64,000 bases of DNA, from contig NC_081380.1 of assembly GCF_030684315.1 (NCBI RefSeq), positions 27,091,951-27,155,950 of the forward strand. Direction: 5' to 3'. The stretch comes from Stegostoma tigrinum. Taxonomy: Eukaryota. The position numbers were made by a program, and so were the translations under genes. The notes under the pieces are model-generated. The model made no database searches and had not been told where the DNA came from. It saw only the letters and a program-made list of their open reading frames with translations. How positions within the stretch are numbered: the first letter of the stretch is position 1; the number at the start of each line of letters is the position of its first letter. This document shows, in pieces, positions 6,675 through 63,182 of this stretch.

Positions 6675-6900
6675 AAGAACTGCAGATAAATCAGAAACAA
6701 AACCAGAAGTTGCTGGAAAAGCTCAGCAGGTCTGGCAGCATCTGTGAAGAAAAATCAGAGTTAACGTTTCGGGTCCGGTGACCCTTCCTCAGAACGGAGT
6801 TCAGCGTTGATTTTTGAGAAAGGGTCACCAGACCTGATACGTGAACTCTGATTTTACTTCATGGATGCTGTCAGACCTGCTGAGCTTTTCCAGCAATTTG
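6675..6900. mobile_element. Fold-back Penelope pseudo-LTR mini-insertion (family B)
   Basis: Inverted arms TTGCTGGAAAAGCTCAGCAGGTCTG... / ...CAGACCTGCTGAGCTTTTCCAGCAA. Same family at 14930, 15320, 27970, 50959 and 56716. Confidence 0.8.
6760..6795 (-). ncRNA. Minimal type I hammerhead ribozyme motif
   Basis: Minus strand reads guu-CUGAGGA-A-GGGUC-accg-GACCC-GAAAC-GUU-aac. Confidence 0.7.
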
Positions 6901-30509: not shown

Positions 30510-30805
30510 TGGAGGTGCCGCTGCTGGATTGGAGTGGACAAGGTCAGAAATCACACATTACCAGGTTATAGTCCAACAGGTTTATTTGAAATCACAAGCT
30601 TTTGGAGTGCTACTCATTTGTCAAGTGAAGCAAAGAGAAGCATATAGGCACAGAATTTATAGGCAGAGAGATCAAAAGATCATACAAATGGTGTCAATGG
30701 AGTGTCGACGGGCTGAATAGGAAGTCTCTGCAAATGATCAAAAGTGTCAGCTTGTAATTTCAAATAAAGCTGTTAGACTATAACCTAGTGTCGTGTGACT
30801 TCTGG
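30510..30805. mobile_element. Probable PLE pseudo-LTR insertion (family D) with inverted end
   Basis: CAGAAATCACAC...GGTTATAGTCCAACAGGTTTATTTGAAAT is inverted at 30757-30803; degenerate hammerhead-like remnant at 30595-30625 on minus. Confidence 0.5.
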
Positions 30806-33919: not shown

Positions 33920-34138
33920 AGATAATAAAGTGTGGAGCTGGATGAACACAGCAGGCCAAGCAGCATCTTAGGAGCACAAAAGCTGATGTTTCGGCCCTAG
34001 ACCCTTCATGCTCCAATGGAGGGTCTAGGCCTGAAACGTCAGCTTTTGTGCTCCTGAGATGCTGCTTGGCCTGCTGTGTTCATCTAGCTCCACACTTCGT
34101 TATCTTGGATTCTCCAGCATCTACAGATCCCATTATCA
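33920..34138. mobile_element. Fold-back PLE pseudo-LTR mini-insertion (family C)
   Basis: About 90-bp inverted arms; 15-bp target duplication CTATTC(G/T)TTAATCCA at 33905-33919 and 34139-34153. The CUGAUGA box is disrupted on both arms. Confidence 0.85.
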
Positions 34139-36973: not shown

Positions 36974-37045
36974 GGTGCAGATGATGTCTTTTAGCGATCA
37001 AAGCATGAGAATTTATGATTATCACAATTTTTGTACTGATGCACC
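36974..37045 (+). ncRNA. SNORD4: C/D snoRNA SNORD4 (Z17/mgh18S-121)
   Basis: Terminal stem GGTGCA/TGCACC, box C ATGATG (36981), guide AGCGATCAAAG (36993-37003), D' ATGA, box D CTGA (37036-37039). RPL23A is the known host gene. Confidence 0.92.
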
Positions 37046-37114: not shown

Positions 37115-37375
<261 letters not shown>

Positions 37376-39661: not shown

Positions 39662-39998
39662 AGTTTGAGAAGTTTTTGTAGCTCAGGTTGTGGATGAGGT
39701 TTAGACTTGCTCGCTGAGCCGGTGTGGTTGATTGTAGACATTTTGTCACCTTGCTAGGTAAAATCATCAGTGTGTCTCCAGTGAAGCGTTGGTGTTCTGT
39801 CCTGCTTGTTATTTATATGTTTCTGTTTGCCCTTGTAAAACAGAACCAGACGTGATATCAACCACCCCAGCAAACCGAGACATATAAATAACAAGCGGAC
39901 AGAACACCAATACTTCACCAGAGGTGCACTGATTATGTTACCTAGCAGGGTGATGAAATGTCTGCAGTCAATCACACCAGCTTGGCGAGCAACTCTAC
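39662..39998. mobile_element. Fold-back PLE pseudo-LTR (family A) nested in a SINE
   Basis: Related to 2677-2883; inverted arms about 39705-39825 and 39878-39995. Both hammerhead cores are mutated. Confidence 0.75.
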
Positions 39999-40879: not shown

Positions 40880-41173
40880 AATTTTTAAAAGTTCTTTTGG
40901 TAGTTTACAGTTGAGTTTTTCCTTTTGGTTACTTGGAAAAATCTTATTAAATGCTCAGTGTTTTTTGATCAAAGACTGTTTATTCTAACATTACCAATTT
41001 TTAAAAAATGTACGTACTGTTGCATCTGTTTTGATCCTGCATCTGGTGATTCACTGCTGCAACTTCTGTTTGCTGCCGAACCCTTCTCTTGTGCTGTTGT
41101 AGCTTCCAACTCTTTGCTCCTATTTTCCAGCCTGTCTAAGCTTCCATCTTATTCAAACTGGTGATGTATTCTG

Positions 41174-41296
41174 AGATAGTAGGAACTGCTGATGCTGAAG
41201 TCAGATAACAAGGTGTGGAGCTGGATGAACACAGCAGGCCAGGCAGCATCAGAGGAGCAGGAAAACTGATGTTTTGGGTCTGGACCCTTCTTCAGT
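41174..41296 (-). mobile_element. Single-arm PLE pseudo-LTR fragment (family C)
   Basis: Matches the 45957 arm; ends just past the hammerhead position; TGTATTCTG flanks both sides. Confidence 0.7.
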
Positions 41297-42751: not shown

Positions 42752-44947
42752 CAGTGGAGCTTGAGGTGGGAGGAAGGACAGGTTAGGGAGGTGGGGATGA
42801 GCTGGGCTGGTTTTGGGAGGTGGTAGGGGGACTTTGAAGCTTGTGCCCTGGTTGACTCATTGTCTCCACCTGCTCCTGCCCCACCAAACTTATCTCCACC
42901 TATATGGACTCCATTTTCTCTCCCTTGGTCCAGGAACACCTTACCTACGTCCATAACACCACCCACGCGCTCCAGAACTATCAATTTTCCAGCCCCCAAC
43001 ACCTCATCTTTACCATGGACATCCATTCCCTATATATCTGCATTCCCCATACCAATGGCCTAAAGGTCCTCGGCTTCTTTCTGTTCAGCAGGCCCAACCA
43101 CTGACACCCTTGTCCGCTTAGCCGAACTCGTCCTCCCCCCTCAACAACTTCTCTTGATTACTCCAACTTCCTACAGACAAAAAGGGTGGCGATGGGTACC
43201 TGCATAGGCTCAAGCTATGCCTGCCCCTTTGTAGGTTATGTGGAACAATCCCTCTTCCATACCTACACTGGCCCTAAGCCCCACCTCTTTCTCCATTACA
43301 TTGATGACTGTATCAGGGCTGCCTCATGCTCCCATGAGGTGCTTGAACAGTTCATCCACTTCACCAACACCTTCCACCCCAACCTCAAGTTCACCTGGAC
43401 TATCTCTATCAAATCCCTCACTTTCCTGGACCTCTTGTCTCCGTCAACCACCTGGAAACCAATAGCCATTTCAAGCCCTCCGACTCCCACAGCTACCTAA
43501 AATACACCTCCTTCCCACCCACCTTCTTGCAAAAATGCCATCCCCTATTCCCAATTCCTTTGCCTCCGCTGCATCTGCTCCCAGGATGAGGCATTCCACT
43601 CCCGTGTATCTCAGATGTCCTTGTTTTTCAAGGACTGCAACTTCCTGCCCTCTGGTCGAGAACACCATCGACTGTGTCTCCCACATTTTCTGCAACTCAT
43701 CCCTCAAAACCCCTCCCTGCAATAAAAACCAAAACAAAATCCCCCTCATCCTCACATACCACCCCACCAACCTCCGGATCCAACACATCAGCCTCTGACA
43801 CATAGAACATTACAGCACAGTACAGGCTCTTCGGCCGTCGATGTTGTGCCGATCTGACATACCGATTTCAAGCCCATCTAACCTACAGTATTCCATGTAT
43901 GTCCATCTTCCGCCATCTGCAATCCGACCCCACCACCAAAGACATTTTTCCCTCCCCACCCTTATCTGCCTTCCGGAAAGCCCACTCTCTCCATGATTCC
44001 CTTGTCCGTTCCACACTCCCCTCCAGCCCCGCCACTTCCGGCACTTTTCCCTACAACTGCAGGAAGTGCTACACCTGCACCTATGCCTCCTCCCAGGCAC
44101 CAAGAAGACTTTCCACATCAGGCTGATGTTCACCTGCACATCTGCTAACGTGGTATGCTGTATCTGCTTTACCTGTTGTGTCCTCCTCTACATTGGGTAT
44201 CCCAAGCAGAGGCTTGGGGACCGCTTTGCAGAACACCTACGCTTGGTTTGCACTAAACAACTGCACCTCCCAGATAACAAAGTGTGAAGCTGAATGAACA
44301 CAGCAGGCCAAGCAGCGTCTGAGGAGCACAAAAGCTGGCGTTTCGGGCCTAGACCCTTGCACCTCCCAGTTGCGAACCACTTCAATTCTCCCTCCCATTC
44401 CGTCGACGACATGTCCATCCTGGGCCTCCTGCAGTGCCACAACGATGCTACTCGAAGGTTGCAGGAACAGCACCTCATATTCCGTTTGGGAACCCTGCAG
44501 CCCAATAGTATCCATGTGGATTTCACAAGCTTCAAAATCTCGCCTCCCCCCACTGCATCCCAAAACCAGCCCAGCCTGTCTCCGCCTCCCTAACCTGTTC
44601 TTCCTCTCACCTATCCCCTCCTCCCACCTCAAGCCGCACCTCCATTTCCTACCTACTAACCTCATCCTGCCCCCTTGACCTGTCCCCTCCCTACCTCCCC
44701 ATCTACACTCACCTTTACTGGCTCCATCCCCGCCTGTTTAACTTGTCTGTCTCCTCTCTACCTATCTTCTCTTCTGCCAACCTCCCCCTCTCTCCCTATT
44801 TATTTCAGAACCCCCTTCCCCTTCCCCCATTTCTGAGGAAGGGTCTCGGTCTGAAATGTCAGCTTTCCTGCTCGGTCCTGCTGTGTTCATCCAGTTTCAC
44901 ACCTTGTTATCTCGGATTCTCCAGTATCTGCGGTTTCTCCTATCTCT
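42752..44947 (+). mobile_element. Penelope-like retroelement (probably Neptune clade), 5'-truncated with inverted 5' piece; RT plus GIY-YIG, frameshifted
   Basis: IVSTCSCPT, LIFTMDIHSLY, AMGT.IG.SYAC.F, HYIDDCI, C..CYTC linker, FTCTSANVV..I.....LYIG and a 3' pseudo-LTR. 42752-42860 is an inverted copy of the 3' region. Confidence 0.92.
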
Positions 44948-45289
44948 GCAGTATCCTAGCCGGGGTAAAGGAAACGGGAAGCTTGGTGGTGTTAATTGTA
45001 CCTCGGTTTTTAACCCGTTCATCAGTAGTGCCCGTACACAAACTGCGGGGGGGAGCGCCGAATCCTTTCCTGAGCAGAGCTCAAAATGGGTTACAGCTAA
45101 AGTGGGACGTGTCACTGTAGGCAGGGCCTGCATCTCAACACCTTCAAGGAGGAAAATATAGAACCAAGCCAAAAGAGGTTTAGAAAATGTCAAATCTGAA
45201 GGCGTCAGTAATTTTGTTTTGGGGGGGGGAGGGGACTCAAAATCTGAACCGAACTAAAGTGCAGCGAGAAAGCAACACAAAAGAGAGCG

Positions 45290-45600
45290 ACCGAGACCGC
45301 GACCACATGGACGGCGTTTGGAGGAGCAGGGTGTCAGGAGCGTGATTTCCGGTTCCGGTTTGGGCTGGTTGCTAGGTAACCAGGGCCTGGTGCGGAGGAG
45401 GGGGAGAGTAATGGTGGAGACTGTCACGTCGCTGCAGACAGCGTGCGCCTCCTTGCCCCTAGCTGCTGGCTCTAATTTATGGTACTGTCTCTGAGAGAGG
45501 CCCCGGTCAGCAACCGGAGGACGGGCTTGGTCAAACCTCAAGGTCTGGGTGGATGAACTAAACTGTTCCCTAAACTCCACAAGCATTTAAATAGTAAGTT
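45290..45600 (+). promoter_or_regulatory. MRM1: CpG-rich promoter / putative non-coding first exon of MRM1
   Basis: Tandem ETS/GABPA sites TTCCGGTTCCGG (45347-45358), RFX X-box GTTGCTAGGTAAC (45368-45380), candidate donors at 45376 (gtaacc) and 45594 (gtaagt). Nearest CpG-rich block upstream of the MRM1 ATG. Confidence 0.65.
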
Positions 45601-45956
45601 CGGGCCTTTGAATTTTACTGCATGCTTACCGTTTTTATCGCCAATGATAAGGTGCTTTGCTGTCCCGTGTTGTGTAAAACGCCAGATTTTCCACACAGAC
45701 AGTGCTAAGTGTTGTTGCAACGCAGTGGTAGTGTTCCCACCTCTGAGCCAGGAATCCTGGGTTCACGTTCTGCATGCTCCTGAGTTGATCAGAAAACATC
45801 TCAAAATCAAGGTCAGGGTACACTGGGAAAGTGGGGTTCCAGGACGATTAACATTTTGTTTGAATAATAGCGGGAGTCTGGGGGACAGGCAGTGAAAGGC
45901 CATGTGTTGATGTCTGCAGGATTTATCCAGCCAAAGTTGGCAACTCTGTTATAATA

Positions 45957-46166
45957 GAGATAATGGGAACTGCAGATGCTGGAGATTCCAAGATAATAAA
46001 ATGTGAGGCTGGATGAACACAGCAGGCCAAGCAGCATCTCAGGAGCACAAAAGCTGACGTTTCGGGCCATCAGAGCTCTGATGAAGGGTCTAGGCCCGAA
46101 ACGTCAGCTTTTGTGCTCCTGAGATGCTGCTTGGCCTGCTGTGTTCATCCAGCCTCACATTTTATT
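45957..46166. mobile_element. Young fold-back PLE pseudo-LTR mini-insertion (family C)
   Basis: Near-perfect inverted arms of about 75 bp; perfect 15-bp target duplication AACTCTGTTATAATA (45942-45956, 46167-46181). Confidence 0.9.
46072..46111 (+). ncRNA. Minimal type I hammerhead ribozyme motif
   Basis: agagcu-CUGAUGA-A-GGGUC-ua-GGCCC-GAAAC-GUC-agcuuu; predicted cleavage after 46105. Confidence 0.78.
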
Positions 46167-46519
46167 AACTCTGTTATAATAAATGTTTTAAGAGACATTG
46201 TCTAGCAAATGAACTGTGGGTGACAACAAGCTAGTGACAGCTCTGTTGTGATGTGATCAGTGGTTTCAGGAAGAAAAACAGAGTTTGGCATAGATTTCCT
46301 GTCCCACAGGCCCAGTTTATACTTGAGAAAAGTGGGAAAATCAGGACATTTGACAAAATTATCAGGACACTTCATGAAAAACCAGCACAGTCCTGGCAGA
46401 AGCACACTTAGGCCTTTGTGTTATCTGCGGTTGGCGGATGCCCTCTTCATGTCACACGTGAAGCAAGATGATAAGCTCTAGTACCCCATTTCCCCAGAGC
46501 TCTGATCTCGGATCTCCAG

Positions 46520-47393
46520 ATTTTACAAAAATTGGTGGGGTGGATGAGGACAGCCTTAGGTTGCAGGAAGATATAGACAAGCTAATCAGTGAAAAACAGA
46601 ATTCAGTCAGGATAAATGTGAGGTCTTTCACGTGGACAGGACAAACAAGGCAAAGGGATATATGATGAATTGTTGGACTCTAGTAAGTACCAAGGATCAG
46701 AAGGACCTTAGAGAATGTGTATATACACCGATCCCTGAATGTATTAGGATAAGTGGATAAAGCGGTTAAGAAGGTGTTTGGTATACTGCCTTTATTACCC
46801 AAGGCGTAGAGTTTTAAGAGTAGGGAGATTATGCCGGAACTCTGGAAAACTAGATCTAGAATTTGCGTGCATTTCTGGAATGAATGTTAAGTGGAGGAAT
46901 ATGAGGCACTGGTTTAGAGGGGATTTACCAAAATGTTGCTTGGGCTGAAGAGTTTCAGTTATGAAAAGAGATTGGATTGACTGGACTTGTTTTCTTTGGA
47001 GCAGAGAAGATTGAGGGGAGATATCATTGAGATTTATAAAATTTTGAAGTGCTTATATAGGATAGATAGAATCTTTTCTCCTTGATGCAGGAGCCATTGA
47101 CCAGGGCATAGTTTTAAAGTAAGGGGCAGTAGGTTTAGAGGAGATGTGAGGAAATTTTTTTTTCACCCAGAGGGTGGTGGGAATCTGGAGTTCGCTGCCT
47201 GTAAGTATGGTAGGGGCAAAACCCTCATAACATTTAAGAAGTATTTAGACGTACACTTGTGATGCCAAAACAAACAAGGCTATGAGCCAAGTGTTCGAAA
47301 ATGGGATTGGAATAGTTAGGTGGTTGTTTTTGACTGACACGGATGCAGTGGATTATAGGGACTTTTTCTGTCCTGTAGGTCTCTGTGACTCTA
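46520..47393 (+). mobile_element. CR1 LINE 3' portion
   Basis: TKIGGVDEDSLRLQEDIDKL, downstream CR1 C-terminal motifs and tail. Confidence 0.8.
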
Positions 47394-49716
47394 GAACTTA
47401 ACTTTTAATACCTCCCACATCTGCACCTACCTTTCTTTACAGCACTAAAATGACCCTGATCAAATTCAAAAGATATTATCTAGTTGTTGCTGTACTGCGT
47501 ACATTATCTCTTCCTGTTCTTTTTAACCTCTCTTCAGCCTTTGAATTAGTGCATCATCAATTCATCAACTGCCATTACTTACTTGCAATTTTGCCCATTT
47601 AATTGTAGGTGGAGAATCTCCTGTAATGGTTTCTCTGCCTACACCCACACTCTTTCTCTGGAGTTTGCTGTGAATCTAGCTCTCATTTTCCTCATCTACA
47701 TTCCTTTGGTGACATTATACAAATGCAAGAGGTCAATTTCCAACTATACATTGGTGCCACACAGCTCTACCTAACCTCCACCTCCCTGCGAACCTTGCAC
47801 TCCCTCTTTGTTTTCAGACAGATAGGCCATAATTTTCTCCAACATCTGGAAAAGTCAAAGCCATTGTTTTAAACTTGCCTCTTTACCTGAACTGCGTTCC
47901 ATCAATGGTAATTCCATCTTCCTTTCTGAGCATTTTCTCACTGAGCCAGACTATTCAGCGTCTGTCTGGCATGCCTGGACCCCGATTTCCACAACAAGGA
48001 AAACCTTGTCGAATCTTGGGAACATCACTAGTTGCTCTCTCTGCCGCCTCAGCTATTTTGCAGCTGACAATACTGCCTTTGAGTCTGTCCCATCTTAACT
48101 GCATCTGTTCTTGAGTCACCTTCAGTTGTTTGAATTCCCAGCCATTTTAAAAATAAAATTAAAACAGCCTGCCTGTGTCACTGAGAAGTAAAAAAGAACT
48201 ATGCAAAAGAAATTAATTTATTTAAATTCCAAGGCTTTTTAAAAAGAAAATGGTTCTAGATGTTTGTTGACAGTACCAGAAAGTGTGTTATTATGCCATT
48301 ACTAATCTTAGGTTGTGAAAAGCAATCCATCATTATCTGAACTGGCAAGGGATGATAAGTGACCCGGTGCTGGTTAGGATGCACGGATTAACGTTTAACT
48401 GGTAGGCCATCACATTGTTTGGGGTCATGGCTGTCAATGGAAAGTGGTTGGCGGGGTTGATAAGAGATGAGGGCTAAAGTGTTTAAAATTAAAGGAAAAA
48501 TCTTAGCATCCCAGACAACTCAGATGGGCCTTTTAAATACCCCACTTTCAGACTCAATAGTCCTTATGACCACCTGTAATCTACTTCTGGGGCAGTGGGC
48601 TTGAATCTGTTGAATACCTGCACCGGCCTTCAATCCCTAGACTTAAAGTCAGGTCTGTCAAGAAGATAGACCCTCTTGCATCAGCCTTGGCAATGACAAC
48701 ACTTCCCAAAGAGGTTTGAAAAGTGTTATGGATGGATATTTGTGTGGGCATGAAGGTAGTAAGTGGACCTTAACTTGGGGAAGCTTGAGATTATTGACTT
48801 TTGTGAGATGCATGAACGTATGTTCTCTGGAGTTTAGAGGATTGTGAGGTGACCTCAATTAAATATACAAAAGTTTGCGTGGTTTTCATGGTGCAGTGTC
48901 TGGAAATAGAGTGCATAGTCTTGGTATAGAGTTTCCCATTTAGGGTGGGGCAGTATTTACTCAAATGGTTGTGAATTATAGGAATTTCCTACCCCAGTGA
49001 TCTGTGGATGCTTAGTCATTGAGCATATTTACAATGAAAGCAGTAGATTTTTGGATGCAAGAGATCAATGGATAAATGGATCAGGTGGGAAAGGAGCTTG
49101 TGGCTGAAGATCAACAGTGATTTTATTAAATGGCAGAGCAGATTGAAGTGGCTGATGTTTGCTCCTGATCCTGTTTAGTGTTTTCTAATGATGCATTGTT
49201 ATTCATATTTGGATTCTACACCCTCTTCTTTCTACTCTGAACGTCCCCACTCCCAACAACTCTGTTGAATGTTAGTATGCCCTGACTGCTTACTGGAGGG
49301 CAATGCCCGAGTGCCCGTTGCTTTCTAGTACCTTCTGGTTGCTACTTCATGTGACAGCCTAGTCAATATTTGAAGGATGTTTCACTTTTGCAGGCATCGT
49401 ACCCAAAGCAAGATTCTATCCTCACTGAATATTCACGCACTGTATATATTGGGTAGCACCAAGCACTAAATTGTGCCGCAAATGGTAGCTAGCCATTTTA
49501 CCCATCCCAGCTAAGGTACCTGAGTCAACTTGCTACATCGTAACTACTGGTTGAATTGAATTATCTGTAGAGACAGTGAGTCAAACCTTGGGCCTTCTAG
49601 CTCGTATGATTTGAGTACTATGTTTAGTGGTGCATTTACTTGCTGGACTGTCACTATTCTTTCCACGAAGAGTATTTCTGTATAGTGGTTTGATTAAAAC
49701 AATTTGCTGTTGACAG

Positions 49717-50651
49717 ATGGAGTTTTTAAAACAGGCAGCAATGTCATCTGTTATGTCAAATGAAGCTGCCAGGTGCCTGAGGAGGAGTCTCTGGCAGTTT
49801 TCCTGGTTACAGTTTGTTCGTCGTTGTAGCTGCAAGAGGGAAATATCCAACGACAGTGCATCAGTCAAACAGAAGCTCACAGTTAAATCTGAGAAGGCAT
49901 CAAATTCAAGTAAGATCCATGGACACGACTTCAATAAGGCAGAACTGGATGTTAAAGGTAATGCAAAGAGATTAACTGAGCTCCCAGAGAGCTTGCACAG
50001 GTCTGCTGCATTGAAAAAGGTAAGAAGACCAGCAATGAATCTTTCCACTGGAACTTCAAGAAAACAAGATGATGCTAGTTTTGTCTGGCAGTCTCAGAAC
50101 CCTTCCAAAGTCATACATACACAATCAAGCTTGAAACCTAGTCATGTCCGCAACTTGGAATTTCACAACCTGAGAAATGATGATTTTACAAAAAGAACAG
50201 TGCCAAAAATTTCTCCATTGACTGAAAGAGAGTCTCATTCAGAGATGTTGTTTGGCATTGCACCTTGTAACCTGGCCCTTTCCCAATTGCGTAGAAAGAT
50301 TTTCAGACTGTTTGTTAAAGAAAATCGAAGACAGCGAGCTGAAATACAGCAAATCTATCAGCGAGTCAAGGAAATTGGAGTGCCAGTACATCAGGTGATG
50401 AGGAAGGTGCTTGACAGGTTAAGTGGGAACCATGTTCACCAAGGTATTTGTCTTGAGGTGACACCTCTGGACTATGTGAACTATGATCAATGCTCTTCAA
50501 CAGATATTGATGGTTCTGAATTTGAACGCAGTGACAAACCGATCTTGTGGCTGGCACTGGAAGAAATCCAGGATCCCATGAACATGGGAGCTGTGCTTCG
50601 TTCTGCTTACTTTCTTGGAGCAGATCTTGTTCTTGTAAGTCAGCAAAAAAG
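49717..50651 (+). CDS. MRM1: rRNA methyltransferase 1, mitochondrial (SpoU/TrmH family), first coding exon
   Basis: 312-aa ORF with EMLFGIAPC, HQGICLEV and SPOUT motif 1 LALEEIQDPMNMGAVLRSAYFLG; phase-2 donor AG|gtaact. Confidence 0.93.
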
Positions 50652-50958
50652 GTAACTATGAACCCCTTGTATTTTAAATTAACATTGATTGGCTTTGAGC
50701 GTAATATGTTTTAAATAGCTGTTTATCATAATCTGTAAAATATATTGGCATTTAAATATTGTCACAAATGTATATGAAAACCAAACATTAATAAATTAAA
50801 TTATTGTTCAATTGGGTGATAGAAGTGTAAAGCTTTAGTGCCAGGAGGAATGATAATCATGCAAATGGATCCTCAGTTTTTGACATCTGTGCAGTTCATT
50901 GCGTTGTCGTGAAAGGACCTGAATAAAAGTTAAATAAAGAGTATTTTAAAAACATATC

Positions 50959-51146
50959 AGGTCTGGCACTGTCTGTAAAGGAGAAAACAGAGTTAACGTT
51001 TTGGGTCCAGTGACCCTTCCTTGGGTCCTCGCTGGACCTGAAACGTTGACTCTGTTATCTCCATCACAGATGCTGCCAGACCTGCTGAGCCCTTCCAGCA
51101 ACTTTTGATTTTGTTCTTGATTTACAGCATCCGCAGTTCTTTTGGT
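50959..51146. mobile_element. Fold-back PLE pseudo-LTR mini-insertion (family B)
   Basis: Inverted arms meet near 51020; target duplication TTTTAAAAAC(A/G)TATC at 50944-50958 and 51147-51161. Confidence 0.8.
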
Positions 51147-51359: not shown

Positions 51360-52217
51360 AAACTCAGTTCATTAAGTAAGAAAGGCTTCTTCACCAACCC
51401 CCTTTGCAGACTGGACTAGTTAAAGCTATTTAAAGAATACTGGCACGACTGTTTGTCAAGGCGGCATTTTCCCACTTTAGGGGTGCCCAAGAATGCTTTG
51501 TAGCAGTGGGGTCAGAGAAACAATTTTCTTTGTCATTGAAAATCGACAAATAAATTAGGACGAAAATTGTTTTTGAATTTGAGTTCTCAGTGCTGGTCTA
51601 AAATCTGTCTGCATGAATGACATTTTTTTGTGTTGACTAGGTGTTAGTAGAAAAAATTAAATTGGTGAAGACATTTTGAAATGATAGACCTGTATGAATC
51701 ACAGTAATGTCAGCAACTGATAGTGTTTTATTTAAACCCTGTCCACATGTTACTGATTGATAGATCATTTATTGAAAATATTTTTAGCAGATTATAATAC
51801 TCAGAATGAACATAATAATCTGTTAAAAATATTTTCAATAAATTTATTTTGACATGTTGCATTGTTATATTTTAATTTGCATTGTGATATAACCAGTGTT
51901 GGTCTCAATAGGAGACAGATTTATGGCATAAACTGTATAAAATCTGTTCCCCTGAAGTGTTGGGCCAGTAATTTTGAACTTGTTGTATTGATCCATTTAC
52001 TGTTAACTAAGTGGCAATTGTTCTCAGTGAAGGTACTCATTCTTCTGGGTTTGAAAGCTGTAGACTCAAGTTCCACTGCAGGACTTGACCACATCAGCTG
52101 GAAAGCCATTTCAGTGCATTATGGAGGGAATACCACAGTATTAGAAATGTTATATCTTTGATCAAATGTAAAACTGAGGCATCACTGACATGGAAAATTT
52201 CATACTGCCTTTTAAGA

Positions 52218-55150
52218 GATAGAGTAAAAGAGTTGTACAGCACGGAAACTAACTCTTTGGTCCAACTCATCCACACTAACCAAACATCCCAATCTGACCT
52301 AGTCCCATTTGCCAGCATTTGGCCCATATCACTGTAAATCCTGAGTAAAGATAATAAAATGTGAGGCTGGATGAACACAGCAGGCCCAGCAGCATCTCAG
52401 GAGCACAAAAGCTGATGTTTCGGGCCTAGACGCTACATCAGAAAGGGGGATGGGGTGAGGGTTCTGGAATAAATAGGGAGAGAGGGGGAGGCGGACCGAA
52501 GATGGAGAGAAAAGAAGATAGGTGGGGAGGTAGTGAGGGGATAGGTCAGTCCAGGGAAGACGGACAGGTCAAGGAGGTGGGATGAGGTTAGTAGGTAGGA
52601 GATGGAGGTGCGGCTTGGGGTGGGAGGAAGGGATGGGTGAGAGGAAGAACAGGTTAGGGAGGCAGAGACAGGCTGGACTGGTTTTGGGATGCAGTGGGTG
52701 GAGGGGAAGAGCTGGGCTGGTTGTGTGGTGCAGTGGGGGAAGGGGCCGAACTGGGCTGGTTTTGGGATGTGGTAGGGGAAGGGGAGATTTTGAAGCTGGT
52801 GAAGTCCACATTGATACCATTGGGCTGCAGGGTTCCCAAGCGGAATATGAGTTGCTGTTCCTGCAACCTTCGGGTGGCATCATTGTGGCACTGCAGGAGG
52901 CCCATGATGGACATGTCATCTAAAGAATGGGAGGGGGAGTGGAAATGGTTTGCGACTGGGAGGTGCAGTTGTTTATTGCGAGCCGAGTGGAGGTGTTCTG
53001 CCTCCGCTTGGTTTCCCCAAATGTAGAGAAAGCCACACCGGGTACAATGGATACAGTATACCACATTGGCAGATGTGCAGGTGAACCTCTGCTTAATATG
53101 GAAAGTCATCTTGGGGCCTGGGATAGGGGTGAGGGAGGAGGTGTGGGGGCAAGTGTAGCATTTTCTGCGGTTGCAGGGGAAGGTGCCCGGTGTGGTGGGG
53201 TTGGAGGGCAGTGTGGAGCGAACAAGGGAGTCATGGAGAGAGTGGTCTCTCCGGAAAGCAGACAAGGGTGGGGATGGAAAAATGTCTTGGATGGTGGGGT
53301 CGGATTGTAGATGGCGGAAGTGTCGGAGGATGATGCGTTGTATCCGGAGGTTGGTGGGGTGGTGTGTGAGAATGAGGGGGATCCTCTTTGGGCGGTTGTG
53401 GCAGGGGCGGGGTGTGAGGGATGTGTTGCGGGAAATGCGGGAGACACGGTCAAGGGTGTTCTCGACCACTGTGGGGGGAAAGTTGCGGTCCTTGAAGAAC
53501 TTGGACATCTGGGATGTGCGAGAGTGGAATGCCTCATCGTGGGAGCAGATGCGGCGGAGGCGGAGGAATTGGGAATAGGGGATGGAATTTTTGCAGGCGG
53601 GAGGGTGGGTGGAAGGAGGTGTATTCTAGGTAGCTGTGGGAGTCGGTGGGCTTGAAATGGACATCAGTTACAAGCTGGTTGCCTGAGATGGAGACTGAGA
53701 GGTCCAGGAAGGTGAGGGATGTGCTGGAGATGGCCCAGGTGAACTGAAGGTTGGGGTGGAAGGTGTTGAAGTGGATGAACTGTTCGAGCTCCTCTGGGGA
53801 GCAAGAGACGGCGCCGATACAGTCATCAATGTAACGGAGGAAGAGGTGGGGTTTGGGGCCTGTGTAGGTGCGGAAGAGGGACTGTTCCACATAACCTACA
53901 AAGAGGCAGGCATAGCTTGGGCCCATGCGGGTGCCCATGGCCACCCCCTTTGTCTGTAGGAAGTGGGAGGAATCGAAAGAGAAGTTGTAAATCCTTCTTG
54001 TTAATATACCCATCCAGGTGCCTTTTAAATGTTGAAATTGTACCAGCCTCCACCAGTTCCTCTGGTAGCTCGTTCCTTACACACCTCACCCTCTGCATGG
54101 AAAAAGTTACCTCCCAAGCCCTTTTTACATCTTCCCCCTCACTTCAAACCTATGTCCTCCAGTTTTGCATTCCCCCACCCTGAGGAAAAAGACTTTGGCT
54201 ATTCACCCTATACCTGCCGGTCATGATTTTATAACCTCTGTATGGTCACCCCTCGGCCTCCAGTGCTCCAAAGATAAAAGCCCCAATCTATTCAGCCTCT
54301 CCCTATAGGTCAAATCCTCCAGACCTGGCAATGTGTAAATTTTTTTCTGCATCCTCTCAAGTTTAACAACATCTTTCCTTTAGAAGGGCAACCAGAATTG
54401 TGCACAGTATTCCAAAAGTGGCTTCACCAATGCCCTGTAAAGCCGCAACACGACATCTCAACTCCTATACTCAGTATTCTAATCAATGAAGGCATGCGTG
54501 TCTTCTATTTTCTTCACCACCCTGTCTATCTCTGACTCCACTTTCAAGGAACTATGCACCTGCATCCCTAGGTCTTTTTGTTCAGCAATACTCCTCAGGC
54601 CCTACATTGAATTGTCTAAGTCCTGCCCTGTTTTGCCTCACCAAAATGCAATACCTCACATTTATCTAAATTAAACTCCATCTGTCACACCTTGGTCCAC
54701 TGGCCCTTCTTATCAAGGTCCTGTTGCACTTTGAGATAATCTACTTCACTGTCCACTACACCTAGGTGGGTGTCATCTGCAGACTCACTAACTGTACCTC
54801 CTATATTCACATCCAAATATTTATATAAATGATGAAAAGCAGTGGACCCAGCACTGTTGCTTGCAGCATGCTGCAAGTCACAGGCCTCCAGTCCAAAAAG
54901 CAACCCTCTGTCACCATCCTCTGTTTCCTACCTTTCAAGCTAATTTTATATCCAATTGGCTAGGACCCCCTGGATCCACATGATCTAACATTACTAACCA
55001 GTCTACCATGTGGAACCATGTCAAACACTTTGCTGAAGTCCATATAGACAACATCTACCGTCTTCAAAAAACTCAACCAAGTTCGTGAGACACAGTTTCC
55101 CGTGCACAAAACCATGTTTACTGTCCCTAATCAGTCCTTGCTTTTCCAAA
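52218..55150 (-). mobile_element. CR1/HER1 LINE (52218-52342 and 53986-55150) split by a PLE
   Basis: Tail at 52218 continues after 53986; minus translations RNELPEELVEAGTISTFKRHLD and SADDT. Confidence 0.85.
52343..53985 (-). mobile_element. Young 5'-truncated Penelope-like element (probably Neptune clade), RT C-half plus GIY-YIG plus pseudo-LTR
   Basis: GVAMGTRMGPSYACLFVGYVEQ, LRYIDDCIG, CNRRKCYTCPH, NVVYCIHCTRCGFLYI; few frameshifts; CpG-rich. 10-bp target duplication TGTAAATCCT at 52333-52342 and 53986-53995. Confidence 0.95.
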
Positions 55151-56715: not shown

Positions 56716-56853
56716 GATAAAAACCAAAAGAACTGCAGATGCTGTAAATCAGGAACAAAAACATAGTCGCTGGAAAAGCTTAGCAGGTCTGGCAGCATCT
56801 GTGACGGAGAAAGCAGAGTTAACATTTCGGGTCACCAGACCCGAAACATTAAT
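56716..56853. mobile_element. PLE pseudo-LTR mini-insertion (family B) folding at hammerhead stem II
   Basis: Ends TTAACATTTCGGGTC-ACCA-GACCCGAAACATTAA; flanked by ATCTAC(C/T)AC at 56707-56715 and 56854-56862. Confidence 0.75.
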
Positions 56854-57290: not shown

Positions 57291-57528
57291 GAGATAATGG
57301 GAACTGCAGATGCTGGAGAATCCAAGATAACAAAATGTGAGGCTGGATGAACACAGCAGGCCAAGCAGCATCTCAGGAGCACAAAAGCTGACGTTTTGGG
57401 CCTAGACCCTTCATCAGAGAGGGGGATGGGGTGAGGGTTCTGGAACCCTCACCCCATCCCCCTCTCTGATGAAGAGTCTAGGCCCGAAACGTCAGCTTTT
57501 GTGCTCCTGAGATGCTGCTTGGCCTGCT
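57291..57528. mobile_element. Young fold-back PLE pseudo-LTR mini-insertion (family C) with hammerhead core on +
   Basis: Arms meet at about 57441; perfect 14-bp target duplication CCTTTCCAGAATTA (57277-57290, 57529-57542); CTGATGA at 57466-57472 and GAAACGTC at 57486-57493. Confidence 0.9.
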
Positions 57529-58560: not shown

Positions 58561-60452
58561 ACAAGTTCCTGCCTAGTCCCAAGCAGATATCCCGAACTCT
58601 AGCATTGAGAAGGCAACACAGCTGCCTGGATTCTCACTTTCTGCTACAGAAAACTTAATCTTTCCGCTTAATTATGCTGTCCCCTATTACCACTACATTT
58701 CTTTCTTACTATCCCTGCTAGCATGGCTTCCTGTGCTATGTTCTTTTTGCTCACTTATACAAGCCGCAAGGACCTCAAACTGCTGGAAAATTGCGAATGC
58801 TGATCCCCCTTACATACCCCTCTTGTAGTTACACGCTTTTGACCCTGATCACTTGCCAAATTAGAAGACCCTATCTTAAGTGGAGGGAAGGGAGGAATAA
58901 CTGTCTCCTGGAATAAAATGCCCAAGTAACTTTTCCTCTCCCTGAAATGTCAGTTTTCAGCTCACTGGCTCTGCCTTGAAACTCTGTGAGCTGCAAACAC
59001 TTACTGCAGATTTGCCTGCCCAGACTCATACTAGTGACCAAAGTGCTCTCATCCTGCATTTGCACTTACCCTGCCATCTTTATTATGTCATAGTTAATTA
59101 ATTAAGAAGTTATACATAAATAATTCATAGCGAACAAACCTGACACCTTCCAATAAGCTTGATTATTACCAATAAACATTAGTAATACTACTAAAGCCCT
59201 AGAATTACTCAAATTACTCAAGTTGTGAGCCATACTTAAGCAAAATACTCACTTAACAATCATGTAATATTTCACTGTGATGTCATGCTTTGACTCTTTT
59301 TTGCCCCCCCTCCCCCAGTTAGTGGTTGTCAGACTCCTTTCAGAGGCCCCCCCCAGCCTCTGCCCATCAGCTCGCCACTTCAAAAATGATGCCTCACCCC
59401 GCCTAGCTCCACTACGATTAATGGACACTCCCCTGCTCTCGTGCTGCTTTTTCATTAGCACTGAAACATTTTTGCACCATTCTGATGTTGTAAACAACAC
59501 TATTTACTAATGTCAAGTCTGTAACAGTAACCTGTAGTGCTAAGAGTTACAAACAAAACTGATCAACTCCAAGATCTTGTTACAAAAATTAGCTACTGCG
59601 TTACAACTTTAACACAACACCCAAGAAGGTGCTGCGCTTACATGAGCATTATCCATTGAGCGCAGACAAGGTATTGTGGAGACAATATACTGCGCTACCA
59701 ATCATCGGAATTCAAAATAAGATCAGAAAGGTTTAGTTTTATATTGAGTCCTTCATGATCACATGAAGCCCCATGCATTTTATGGATAATAAAGTAGTTT
59801 ATAAACATGTACTCAGTACTGTAACAAAGGGAAAGCAGCAGCTGATTTCCATACAGCAAACACACCCACAAACCGGATATTGATCATGACTAGATAATCT
59901 ATTGCTATGATGTCAGTTGGAGGATAAAAATTTACCAGGATTGCATGGATAAGTTAATTTCGTCTTAAATAGTGCCATGAAATCTTTTATGTCTACCAGA
60001 AAGACAACGCTTCCTTATCTACCAGAATTTGGCCTGAATTTAATGTCTCATTTGAACTCAAAACTTCCAACAATGCAACACTGCCCTTACTAATTAAAAA
60101 TCTGTCCAGTACAGCTTTGATATACTTATTGATTGTTAGCCCTTTGCAATAAACTATTCCACAGTGTCACTGCTCTAGGAGAAGAAATTTCTCCTAATTT
60201 CTGTCTTAAATGTTCAACCCAGTACTGGACTCATATACTAGTTTTGATTTTTGCACACAATTCCTGGAGTGGGGCTTGAATCCATAACGTTCTGAATCAG
60301 TGGTAAGAGTACAAACAACAGAATTACAGTTAACAATAGCTGGATATTTTCAATGTGAAATATGTGTCTGCGGTAAATGGAGATTCAGTGTCCTGAGAGA
60401 CATTGTATATTTATGCTTATTTTGCAAATGTTTGCTTTGTACTGTCTTTCAG

Positions 60453-60546
60453 TTGTTCTCTAACTCCAACTGTGAGCAAAGCTAGTGCTGGAGTTCTAGA
60501 AGTTATGACTGTATATTGCACTTCTAGTTTACCTCAAGTACTAAAG
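60453..60546 (+). CDS. MRM1: MRM1 coding exon 2
   Basis: ctttcag| (S)CSLTPTVSKASAGVLEVMTVYCTSSLPQVLK |gtaaca; 94 nt; phases consistent. Confidence 0.93.
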
Positions 60547-60643
60547 GTAACAGAAATTTAGATTTTGAACATTATAACATTACCTTTGGAGTGTTTCAAA
60601 ATAATTTCATAACAGCCCTGCTGTTTGTTTTTAACTTATACAG

Positions 60644-60764
60644 ACAAAAGGAGCCCAAGGCTGGCAAATAGTGGGAACAGTTGGAAAGTCTACCGAAGCC
60701 AGCTTTATACCAGTCATTCCTTGTACAGAGTTCCAGTGGAGCCAACGAACCATCCTGGTTCTGG
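60644..60764 (+). CDS. MRM1: MRM1 coding exon 3
   Basis: tacag| TKGAQGWQIVGTVGKSTEASFIPVIPCTEFQWSQRTILVL+G |gtagtg; 121 nt. Confidence 0.9.
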
Positions 60765-61229
60765 GTAGTGTAAAATGCAGCTTAATTTGCAAGTGTTGGA
60801 CAGCGGTTGTATTTAAAATTTTCTTGCAGTAAATTGGATGCTTAGACTCTACATTCAAACCAGACGAAGCGATGCTGTTTTGTGGAGGATTACTCTGTGA
60901 AAACTTGCATGAAGTACTACTTTGTTCAAGTTATAGGAACAATTTATGCCTTGTTAAAAGTGATGCTCCTACAAAAATGTGCCATTTGTGATTGACAAAG
61001 GTTATGGGGGACAAGGAGGAAAATCAAGTTAAGACAATTGTCACATCAGCCATGACCTTGTGAAAGGTGGTGCAGTTTAGAAGAGCCAAGTGGGCCGCTC
61101 CTGCTCCTCATTCTTATGTTCCCAGTTGCTTTCTATTTACGCCAATTCTATGCACAGTTTTATAAAACTGGCTTGTCATAGATGTCTGTGCTTTGATATA
61201 ATGTCATTATTTCCTCAATTGACTTGAGC

Positions 61230-61590
61230 TCAAAATCTAGGCTGACAGTACCAAGGGAGTGCTAAATGCTTAGAGCTGCTGTATTTTGGATTAAACATTT
61301 AACCAATCGATTATCTGCCTACTCAGATTTTATAAGTATGGTATGAGATCTCACTCTATTGTTCAGGGACTAGCAGGGGAGTTCTCCAGATGTCTTTGTC
61401 AATATCTGTGCTTCAACCAAAATCACCAGAAAAGATTATCTGGACCTTTATCTCCAACTTTTCTGGGACATTACTTTGTGGAATGTAACTACTGCCATTG
61501 TCTACAATATGACTATATTACAAATGTAATAAGTGGTTTTTGGGTGCTTTGAACTGTCCTGCAGATATGGAAAGCAATGTTGAAATGTAA
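61230..61590 (+). mobile_element. DeuSINE-like repeat, degraded
   Basis: CAGTACCAAGGGAGTGCT...TTTTGGATTAAACATTTAACC resembles 8000-8340. Confidence 0.55.
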
Positions 61591-62303
61591 ATAATTTTAG
61601 ATTTCTTTTATGTTTGTTCTTTTGCTGGTATAAAATGTTACAGGGAAGAAGTTGGAACTGACTGCAGCAATTTGCTTCTGAAGTATAAACAAATAGAGAT
61701 GAGTAAAGGTAACTTTACTCTGCAGCTGGCTGTGGTATTCCTGATCTGAGTTGTTTGATGTATGCAAATTGTTTGGCTCTTTAGTTGTCTGAGCACAATA
61801 CTCCCTAGAATGTTTGAGCCAACATTATGATAATTGCACATCAACCAAAAAGCAGCATTTTAGGCTGTGATTTGGTTTCCAATTTGATGTCCAAATGTGT
61901 GGATGTAACAGTGACTGCAGCACAACTACAGTTAAAATGTCACAGCCATTTACTAGCCTTTATTTTTGAAGCCTTTAATATTGTACTCTCACTCTTGCCT
62001 ACACTCACTTAACATTTTTAAAATGAGCTGCAAGGGAACAGAGTGCGTGTCAAAGCACAGAATACTTTTGTCACTGGACATCAGTGTTGACCAGATTTAA
62101 ATTTAGTCATCAATATGATTGGGATTCGCAAACTGCAGACAATGATTTCAGAAAGGCAGGAGTTGTAATACTGATTTTGGCAAGCAACCAAATTGTCATA
62201 GCTGCTTATACATCACAACTACTAGTTTTTGCTTTGCATTTAACATTGAGTTTGTCGCAGTTAATTTTACATATGCACACCTTTTTTTCCCCCTGAACTC
62301 CAG

Positions 62304-62423
62304 GAAATGAAGGTTTTGGCCTTTCTGATGATGTAAGCAGCCTGTGTCATGCAATGCTGACGATACCAGCAGGTAGAGGCTTGCAACCTGGGATTGAATC
62401 CTTGAATGTGTCTGTTGCTGCAG
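62304..62423 (+). CDS. MRM1: MRM1 coding exon 4
   Basis: ctccag| (G)NEGFGLSDDVSSLCHAMLTIPAGRGLQPGIESLNVSVAA |gtaatt; SPOUT motifs 2 and 3; 120 nt. Confidence 0.95.
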
Positions 62424-63138
62424 GTAATTGTTAGAAAAAAAAAATCCACATCAATTTAGACACTTGCACTCAGTGTCGTTTTTTTCCCCTAATCAGAAAC
62501 AACAGTTGTGCACAATAAAAACCAAATGTTATAACAAGTAAATAGAAGACCTTTGGGCATATACTTCACATTGAATAATTTTTGGAAGGATTCTGAACAT
62601 TGCCAAATGTGCATTGTGAAAGGTGTAAATTGCAGTTTAATTCAGAATTAATATGAAACATTCGTTGCTGATGTGCACATTATATCAGAGGCACACATTA
62701 ATTCCTTTAATCATTTGACTAACGTGAATGTTTGCCTGGTGGCTCACGTGTTATGCTAATTTAGGCATTACAATTTATTTGCCACTTTCTGGAATTACAT
62801 TTTATATTTGGAGTTTTTTAGTTTGAGCAGTGGAAATTAATTGACAATTTCTGTTCACAAAACTTGCAACAGATAGTATTATTTATGAAACATATGGAAC
62901 AAGTTAGTGTAAGTAGATATGTGTAGATTGCCTGCGTAACCTGAAGCTCAGGGTTAGAGCTAGTAGCTACCTCAATACTTGGAGAAGTGGGCCACCCATT
63001 CACACTATTTCACTAGATTCAATCCAATTTGACATCACCTTGAGACTCAATATCTTTCATGATAAAGGTAACTAGGTTCTTGTTTACCCAGTTATGTTTT
63101 GTTGTTGAGACTTGATTTTCCTTAATTTCTTCTTTCAG

Positions 63139-63182
63139 GAATTCTCTTACATTGTATAGCCAGCAGGAGAATGAAAACATGA
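63139..63182 (+). CDS. MRM1: MRM1 last coding exon
   Basis: ctttcag| (G)ILLHCIASRRMKT-stop. Total CDS 1314 nt = 437 aa. AATAAA at 63275, 63367 and 63654. Confidence 0.9.

Follow-up and report, generated by a model that had tools for sequence, protein, structure and literature searches.

A recent head-to-head insertion of truncated Penelope-like element ends in an MRM1 intron of Stegostoma tigrinum, with a hammerhead motif predicted to be inactive

The MRM1 locus and its 210-bp fold-back

The window, by which we mean the whole 64-kb stretch of DNA that was analysed, contains MRM1 on the plus strand. An upstream exon (45316..45593, plus strand), which precedes the start codon and is the first as far as the contig reaches, was matched with 0 differences by record 24 of sequencing run X5; it is followed by a splice donor, GTAAGT, at 45594, which opens a GT..AG intron (45594..49716, plus strand). 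The first coding exon (49717..50652, plus strand) begins with the start codon at 49717, carries the Pfam domains SpoU_sub_bind and SpoU_methylase and matches MRM1 of Stegostoma tigrinum with 100% protein identity; three further coding stretches fall within 60415-63179. In the X5 contig (record 24, 1029 nt), 45316-45593 continues at 49717, and it is by this splicing behaviour that X5 is considered RNA-like; the animal from which X5 derives may or may not carry the insertion described here. The fold-back of 210 bp (45957-46166) begins 363 nt past the donor, in the first intron seen and 5' of the start codon, with its hammerhead motif in sense orientation. An earlier note on this DNA had placed it in a putative first intron of MRM1, a placement that is borne out by the X5 splice together with the MRM1 identity. 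According to the folding model, the fold-back would form a single long hairpin in the pre-mRNA and would leave with the intron.

Two further features of the region were recorded. Position 49916, in the MRM1 coding exon, is G in runs X5 and X12 versus T in the window and in runs X1 and X3, likely a polymorphism. Upstream of MRM1, the snoRNA Z17 (36974-37045) adjoins an exon of the ribosomal protein L23 family (37115-37375).

Four of the 24 listed runs, all in the form of contigs, were compared with 44955-49950; X1 and X3 come from the same study and are possibly the source of the assembly, and X12 is from another organism. The fold-back is bounded by a target-site duplication (TSD) of 15 bp, an unstranded feature in which the left copy (45942..45956) and the right copy (46167..46181) agree at 15 of 15 letters; this 15-mer occurs twice in the whole 64-kb window, with the 210 bp enclosed. 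In the related species, a DNA contig (run X12, record 11) passes directly from 45941 to 46167, with a single 15-mer and no fold-back, its flanks differing from those of the window at 68 of 1028 letters. The empty site indicates that the 15-bp duplication is a true TSD and that the insertion is younger than the split of the two species. Because both junctions were present in X1 and X3, and the site was empty in X12, an assembly artefact was excluded as the source of the insertion; the matches listed included no apex-specific contig, and the letters of the apex are those of the window assembly alone. With identical arms and an empty site in a relative, the 210-bp fold-back is a recent, lineage-specific insertion, and both the perfect target duplication and the youth that had been ascribed to it are thereby confirmed.

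Contigs matching the region numbered 133,688 in X1 and 117,863 in X3, with the depth concentrated on the fold-back, which indicates, as a matter of depth and not of copy number, that the parent family is very abundant. Two subfamily letters, G46113 and A46122, accounted for approximately 92% of depth in X1, as against 3-5% in X12 (depth here, too, not being copy number), a difference which suggests a lineage-specific expansion of this Penelope-like family.

The fold-back consists of two 5'-truncated element ends in head-to-head arrangement. On its left side only, a tail of about 34 nt (45957..45990, minus strand) was recognized from the family termini and the alignment as a Penelope-like element end; the left arm that follows (45991..46075, minus strand) is antisense in the MRM1 transcript and 97% identical to 57291-57440 and 52348-52464. 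The right arm (46076..46166, plus strand) is tail-less, begins 2 nt before residue C3 of the hammerhead and has its outer end 4 nt short of the tail-less family terminus. The arms meet in a perfect, spacer-free palindrome of 16 bp (46068..46083, unstranded) centred between 46075 and 46076. Across 74 bp (45995-46068 against 46093-46166) they have 0 mismatches, in keeping with the near-perfect inverted arms described previously; the left arm has lost 10 nt between 46068 and 46069, and with them part of the minus-strand hammerhead core and of its helix II, which destroys that hammerhead. Both the tail and the deletion are confined to the left side, and the element is consequently asymmetric, a correction to the earlier note.

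Loose contig ends piled up at 45956 (473 records in X1 and 495 in X3) and at 45991 (470 and 468, respectively), marking two family termini, 35 nt apart, that bound the tail; among the loose ends listed, DNA ends did not accumulate at the hammerhead cleavage site, an outcome that weighs neither for nor against templating by cleaved RNA. Joints between opposite strands were also observed, in X1 at 45956-45992 (57 contigs) and at 45956-46076 (48 contigs); the former, which connects the tail terminus with the tail-less terminus, occurred in 57 contigs of X3 as well. Tail-to-tail junctions elsewhere in the genome are a possible source of the joints between the two termini.

The parent family and its other fold-backs

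A 5'-truncated body of the parent family is located at 52348..53980 (minus strand), where the YIDD of a reverse transcriptase is followed by a CX4CxxC linker, a nuclease motif of GIY-YIG type with two cysteines and the shared terminal sequence; both arms of the fold-back are 94-97% identical to its end. The Pfam match of this body to RVT_1 (E 0.0018) is below the cut-off, and its homologues carry PF00078 or PF01541; the nuclease domain was missed by Pfam in all 13 frames scanned from two element bodies. A search of metagenome contigs yielded 0 further copies of the family. The motifs of the body, along with the terminal identity, support the Penelope origin that had been proposed for the fold-back, and the CX4CxxC linker places the parent with Neptune/Nematis, the designation "Neptune-type" referring to this motif only.

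In the accessible portions of Craig et al. 2021 (PMC8557442), insertions of Penelope-like elements (PLEs) are typically described as an inverted 5'-truncated copy with a tail of 30-40 bp at one end; excerpts of Arkhipova et al. 2013 (PMC3846280) describe head-to-head junction palindromes in rotifer PLEs and TSDs of 8-10 bp in Adineta. The MRM1 fold-back combines identity to its parent, an inverted truncated copy with a palindrome, a one-sided tail, and a TSD with an empty site, all features of an EN+ Penelope-like insertion, and it belongs to the known class of Penelope-like insertion by-products. With inverted-pLTR insertions of EN+ PLEs it has in common the head-to-head truncation, the junction palindrome, the tail at one end and the TSD, whereas it has no ORF between its arms, measures 210 bp in total, exhibits a 10-nt deletion by the apex and has a TSD longer than those of Adineta.

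Poseidon PAc of Anolis carolinensis, as presented in passages of Frangieh et al. 2024 (PMC11167929), also has two termini bounding a tail ~90-126 nt downstream of its hammerhead, and shares an AT-rich target and near-zero homology between the target and the element end. PAc differs from the shark parent in that the latter bears a CX2-5CxxC linker, a feature present in Neptune/Nematis and missing from Penelope/Poseidon according to the portions of PMC8557442 consulted, and fold-back products are absent from the passages on PAc in PMC11167929. Non-LTR retrozymes (bioRxiv 10.64898/2026.07.22.740005, in the part available) are likewise small, non-coding derivatives of PLE ends with a type I hammerhead, but they are direct tandem repeats with one hammerhead per unit, whereas the MRM1 fold-back consists of one inverted pair in which one of the cores is intact. 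The two or more direct tandem units with complete hammerheads that define a retrozyme do not occur at the 210-bp fold-back, where no tandem array was found and where the second core is broken and lies on the other strand.

Within the 64 kb, eight fold-backs from three families were found, about one per 8 kb, at 2677-2883, 6707-6899, 33920-34138, 39702-39997, 45957-46166, 50959-51146, 56726-56852 and 57291-57528. A TSD of 14-15 bp with 0-1 mismatch flanks five of the eight, a TSD score as good being reached at 1 of 300 random sites; for the remaining three no TSD was found. Inverted repeats at 30545-30804 and 51767-51843, which had no match to the hammerhead families, were excluded from the count. 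The fold-back at 2677-2883, from a third family, has an exact 15-bp TSD and a one-sided tail of ~43 nt, and each of its strands bears a minimal hammerhead that is nearly intact and has a long helix II. A non-inverted stub of family 1 (44262-44369), with a TSD of 12 bp, interrupts an older Penelope-like body (42765-44946) in its nuclease region.

Measured from C3, the 5' ends of the short insertions of family 1, to which the MRM1 fold-back belongs, are situated at +3 (33920-34138), 0 (41173-41295), +6 (44268-44358), -2 (45957-46166) and about -24 to -28 (57291-57528); four of the five begin within -2..+6, and none begins at the cleavage site (+28). This clustering is based on 5 insertions and has a post hoc p that varies with the range assumed (0.003-0.04); it suggests that reverse transcription stops, or that the RNA has its 5' end, at the edge of the hammerhead. 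Approximately 24 nt 5' of the hammerhead, both element bodies have a pyrimidine-rich stretch ending in CAG (44798-44812, plus strand; 52462-52478, minus strand), which resembles a 3' splice site and on which the apex at 57441-57443 is located; it is possibly part of an element intron, comparable to that of Drosophila Penelope.

Formation of the head-to-head junction

When the arms of the MRM1 fold-back are read as cDNA, they run inward from the two 3' ends of the TSD and end at one letter without a spacer, and both arms of the fold-back at 33920-34138 likewise stop at one letter (+3). The spacer-free junction, the deletion in one arm and the equal endpoints at 33920-34138 agree with dual priming, which is the simplest account, and we put the chance that the insertion in the MRM1 intron arose in this manner at about even. 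By this route, the element nuclease would nick both strands of the target, at positions offset by 15 nt, and both 3' ends would prime reverse transcription within the element RNA, one at the tail site and one near the tail-less site. Both cDNAs would then halt 2 nt 5' of the hammerhead core, probably at the RNA 5' end, near the point where most short copies of the family end; the cDNA ends would be joined, giving a spacer-free palindrome, with repair filling in, and the 10-nt deletion of the left arm would have occurred during copying or afterwards.

Passages of PMC11167929 provide a precedent for activity on both strands: the Anolis protein, a predicted dimer, cleaves each strand of its target and extends it, and it starts internally at two sites bounding the tail. 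In its general form, the proposal is that shark stubs of this type record how PLEs come by their inverted ends, that a dimeric protein primes both nicks inside the RNA 5' leader, and that the cDNAs run off before the hammerhead and their ends join; to this we assign a probability slightly short of even. The literature search, which covered sources other than subscription papers and supplements, found no statement of the dual-priming model; no publication on the zebra shark and Penelope was found either.

Alternatively, a single cDNA or an antisense template may have folded back on itself, the right arm being copied from the left, in which case the hammerhead would still be a passenger. Such self-priming is the published reading of junction palindromes (PMC3846280, in the excerpts available), and we regard it here as a tentative but credible origin. 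The identity of the arms across 74 bp agrees with it, as do the asymmetric junctions with short complementarity at 57441-57443 and 2755-2768, which are snap-back-like, and the containment of the short arm within the long arm in all three family-1 fold-backs, including the shortened arm at 57528. The outer end of that right arm (57443-57528) is 30 nt short of the tail-less terminus, and right arms ending 4 nt (46166) and 30 nt (57528) short of it are fitted equally well by copying back. A spacer-free palindrome, however, could not be produced by folding back unless the added letters matched by chance; the left-only deletion of 10 nt would have to follow insertion; and self-priming is further opposed by the fact that the family ends at two fixed termini and that the Anolis protein extends both strands.

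The hammerhead motif and its predicted folding

The minimal type I hammerhead motif (46078..46105, plus strand) is of the kind found in PLEs, with the conserved core, an extra A between positions 9 and 10.1, the pair G10.1-C11.1, a GUC triplet and a helix III that is palindromic and loopless. Its presence on the sense strand, and its nature as a minimal hammerhead of dimer type, agree with what had been noticed previously; the 5-bp helix II (GGGUC/GGCCC) given then would leave a loop of 2 nt and is corrected here to 4 bp with a 4-nt loop, CUAG. Its description as "complete" holds for the minimal motif, but not for helix III, which has no loop, so that a second, free copy of the hammerhead is required. 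The junction provides AGAGCU (46072..46077, plus strand), a potential 5' strand of helix I in trimmed fragments only, which can pair with 46106-46111 in 6 bp, including one G-U, compared with 2 bp from the parental context; this difference, also claimed earlier, stands on paper. When 25 apex positions were simulated, the actual apex alone gave a 6-bp helix I. The 6-bp helix is a by-product of the position of the apex and of the self-complementary AGCU 3' of the cleavage site, and the coincidence of one in 25 is softened by the tendency of the short family-1 insertions, four of five, to start near C3.

Rfam at gathering score returned snoZ17 only, and no hammerhead family, over the window; over 45900-46250, with E up to 10, it returned 16 matches, all below gathering and mostly miRNA shapes, with no hammerhead among them. 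This silence is expected, since the motif is loopless, and counts neither way.

Hammerheads of metazoan PLE pseudo-LTRs, as described in parts of Cervera and de la Pena 2014 (PMC4209133), share with the MRM1 motif the core, the extra nucleotide between 9 and 10.1, G10.1-C11.1, the palindromic 15.2-16.2 and the absence of loop 3. The same parts report pairs of minimal hammerheads on opposite strands and, for Drosophila virilis, a hammerhead with a 2-bp helix I. The MRM1 copy differs from those hammerheads in its helix II of 4 bp (6-8 in theirs), in its possible 6-bp junction helix I and in being embedded in its own antisense strand. A minimal hammerhead from Schistosoma showed no activity in vitro in monomeric form and weak activity when dimeric (PMC4209133, same parts); passages of PMC11167929 report that the Anolis hammerhead motif cleaved only with its protein and was dispensable for insertion in vitro, and that no RNA-seq reads ended at its site.

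In the folding model, which excludes tertiary stabilisation, proteins and kinetics and joins dimers through an unpaired linker, the RNA of the full 210-bp fold-back formed a hairpin of -182.5 kcal/mol (z -24). When helices I and II were imposed and the core was kept open, the penalty was 3.2 kcal/mol in the fragment 46065-46120; the same fold cost 6.8 kcal/mol with 5 extra 5' letters, 24 with 15 extra, and 36 kcal/mol both in the whole fold-back and in an intron stretch comprising its first 807 nt. Helix I paired with a probability of 0.89-0.95 in trimmed fragments, but the value fell from 0.89 for a start at 46065 to 0.003 for a start at 46060, and a hammerhead-like fold in the full fold-back had a P of ~3e-26. 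When the transcript was modelled as it grows, the apex palindrome, once made, paired CAUCAG with the core first, and by 46105 the 3' strand of the core was paired with the left arm at 0.999. A double hammerhead amounted to +84.8 kcal/mol in full context; when trimmed, its penalty was 21.7 kcal/mol versus 29.8 in the parental context. In the folds that compete with the trimmed dimer, the cleavage region is bound by the core, and the pairing of helix II takes place between copies.

Thus, an accessible active fold was not predicted in the context of the transcript (+36 kcal/mol, or +85 for the dimer). We reasoned that the hammerhead is locked because its junction is inseparable from the antisense left arm, which is transcribed earlier. 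The hammerhead is accordingly predicted to be inactive in the native pre-mRNA, and a gain of ribozyme function to be very unlikely. The better-folding ribozyme that the earlier note had envisaged is upheld insofar as helix I is longer in the trimmed fragment, but it fails in the pre-mRNA, where the penalty and the vanishing probability given above apply. The fragment 46065-46120 omits the inhibitory left arm, and in a cleavage test it could give a misleading positive. Taken as a general rule, the view that every dual-priming event leaves behind a hammerhead held shut by its antisense strand is, in our estimate, nearly as probable as not.

The relevant product of the locus could instead be the perfect double-stranded RNA of 74 bp, acting through ADAR editing, through small RNAs against the parent or through an influence on MRM1 splicing, which we judge unlikely. 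The stem is situated within a transcribed intron, fold-backs occur about once per 8 kb, and rotifer Penelope copies give antisense small RNAs (PMC3846280, in the excerpts available); however, the miRNA matches in Rfam are far under gathering scores and reflect hairpin shape only, and the fold-back is restricted to one lineage.

Far less probable is a working ribozyme that cuts the MRM1 pre-mRNA or the excised intron; it would need the left arm to be removed or melted and a second RNA of the family to act in trans. The intact core speaks for it, as do the 6-bp helix I with its high pairing probability after trimming, an apex that is the one position in 25 to yield this helix (at least a coincidence), and a dimer penalty 8 kcal/mol below that of the parental context. 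The family sequence is, in addition, abundant in the RNA-like run X5, in which a loose end at 46105 appears for one contig (1 record, not tied to a locus); contigs cannot show the ends of molecules, and neither the lack of any listed molecule ends nor the absence of X5 from the flanks of the intron carries weight. Nevertheless, even the trimmed double hammerhead remains 21.7 kcal/mol above its competing folds, the junction palindrome pairs CAUCAG with the core immediately, and the penalties in full context are larger still; moreover, the MRM1 message is spliced across the intron in X5, and there is no sign of conservation, the relative having an empty site.

In a second fold-back within MRM1 introns (57291-57528), the minus-strand core (57390-57417) is changed at G12 and the plus-strand core (57466-57493) is changed in helix II, which indicates that hammerhead cores decay freely.

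Mobility of the 210-bp unit itself, copied whole as a non-autonomous element (MITE-like or a retrozyme), is similarly improbable: it would agree with the inverted ends and the TSD, and retrozymes do derive from Penelope ends (bioRxiv 10.64898/2026.07.22.740005, in the part available), but the three fold-backs of family 1 have three different apexes and outer ends, and TSDs of 14-15 bp, a one-sided tail and the lack of a tandem array argue against it.

We therefore hold with high confidence that the 210 bp are a recent insertion of truncated, head-to-head Penelope-like ends in intron 1 of MRM1, likely dual-primed, and that their hammerhead is, by prediction, inactive. Taken alone, the locus is of little weight: the 64 kb contain eight stubs of this sort, and the host intron is spliced. 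A working junction ribozyme in a host pre-mRNA would, if true, show the birth of intronic ribozymes; that prospect is undercut because the event which creates the junction also supplies the blocking strand. Under dual priming and self-priming alike, the hammerhead is likely an ordinary passenger. The formation of tandem and inverted PLE ends is described as undefined in the portions of PMC8557442 consulted, and the lasting value of this locus, a modest one, is mechanistic: the clean TSDs and empty orthologous sites of young shark fold-backs make it possible to weigh dual priming against self-priming by computational means.
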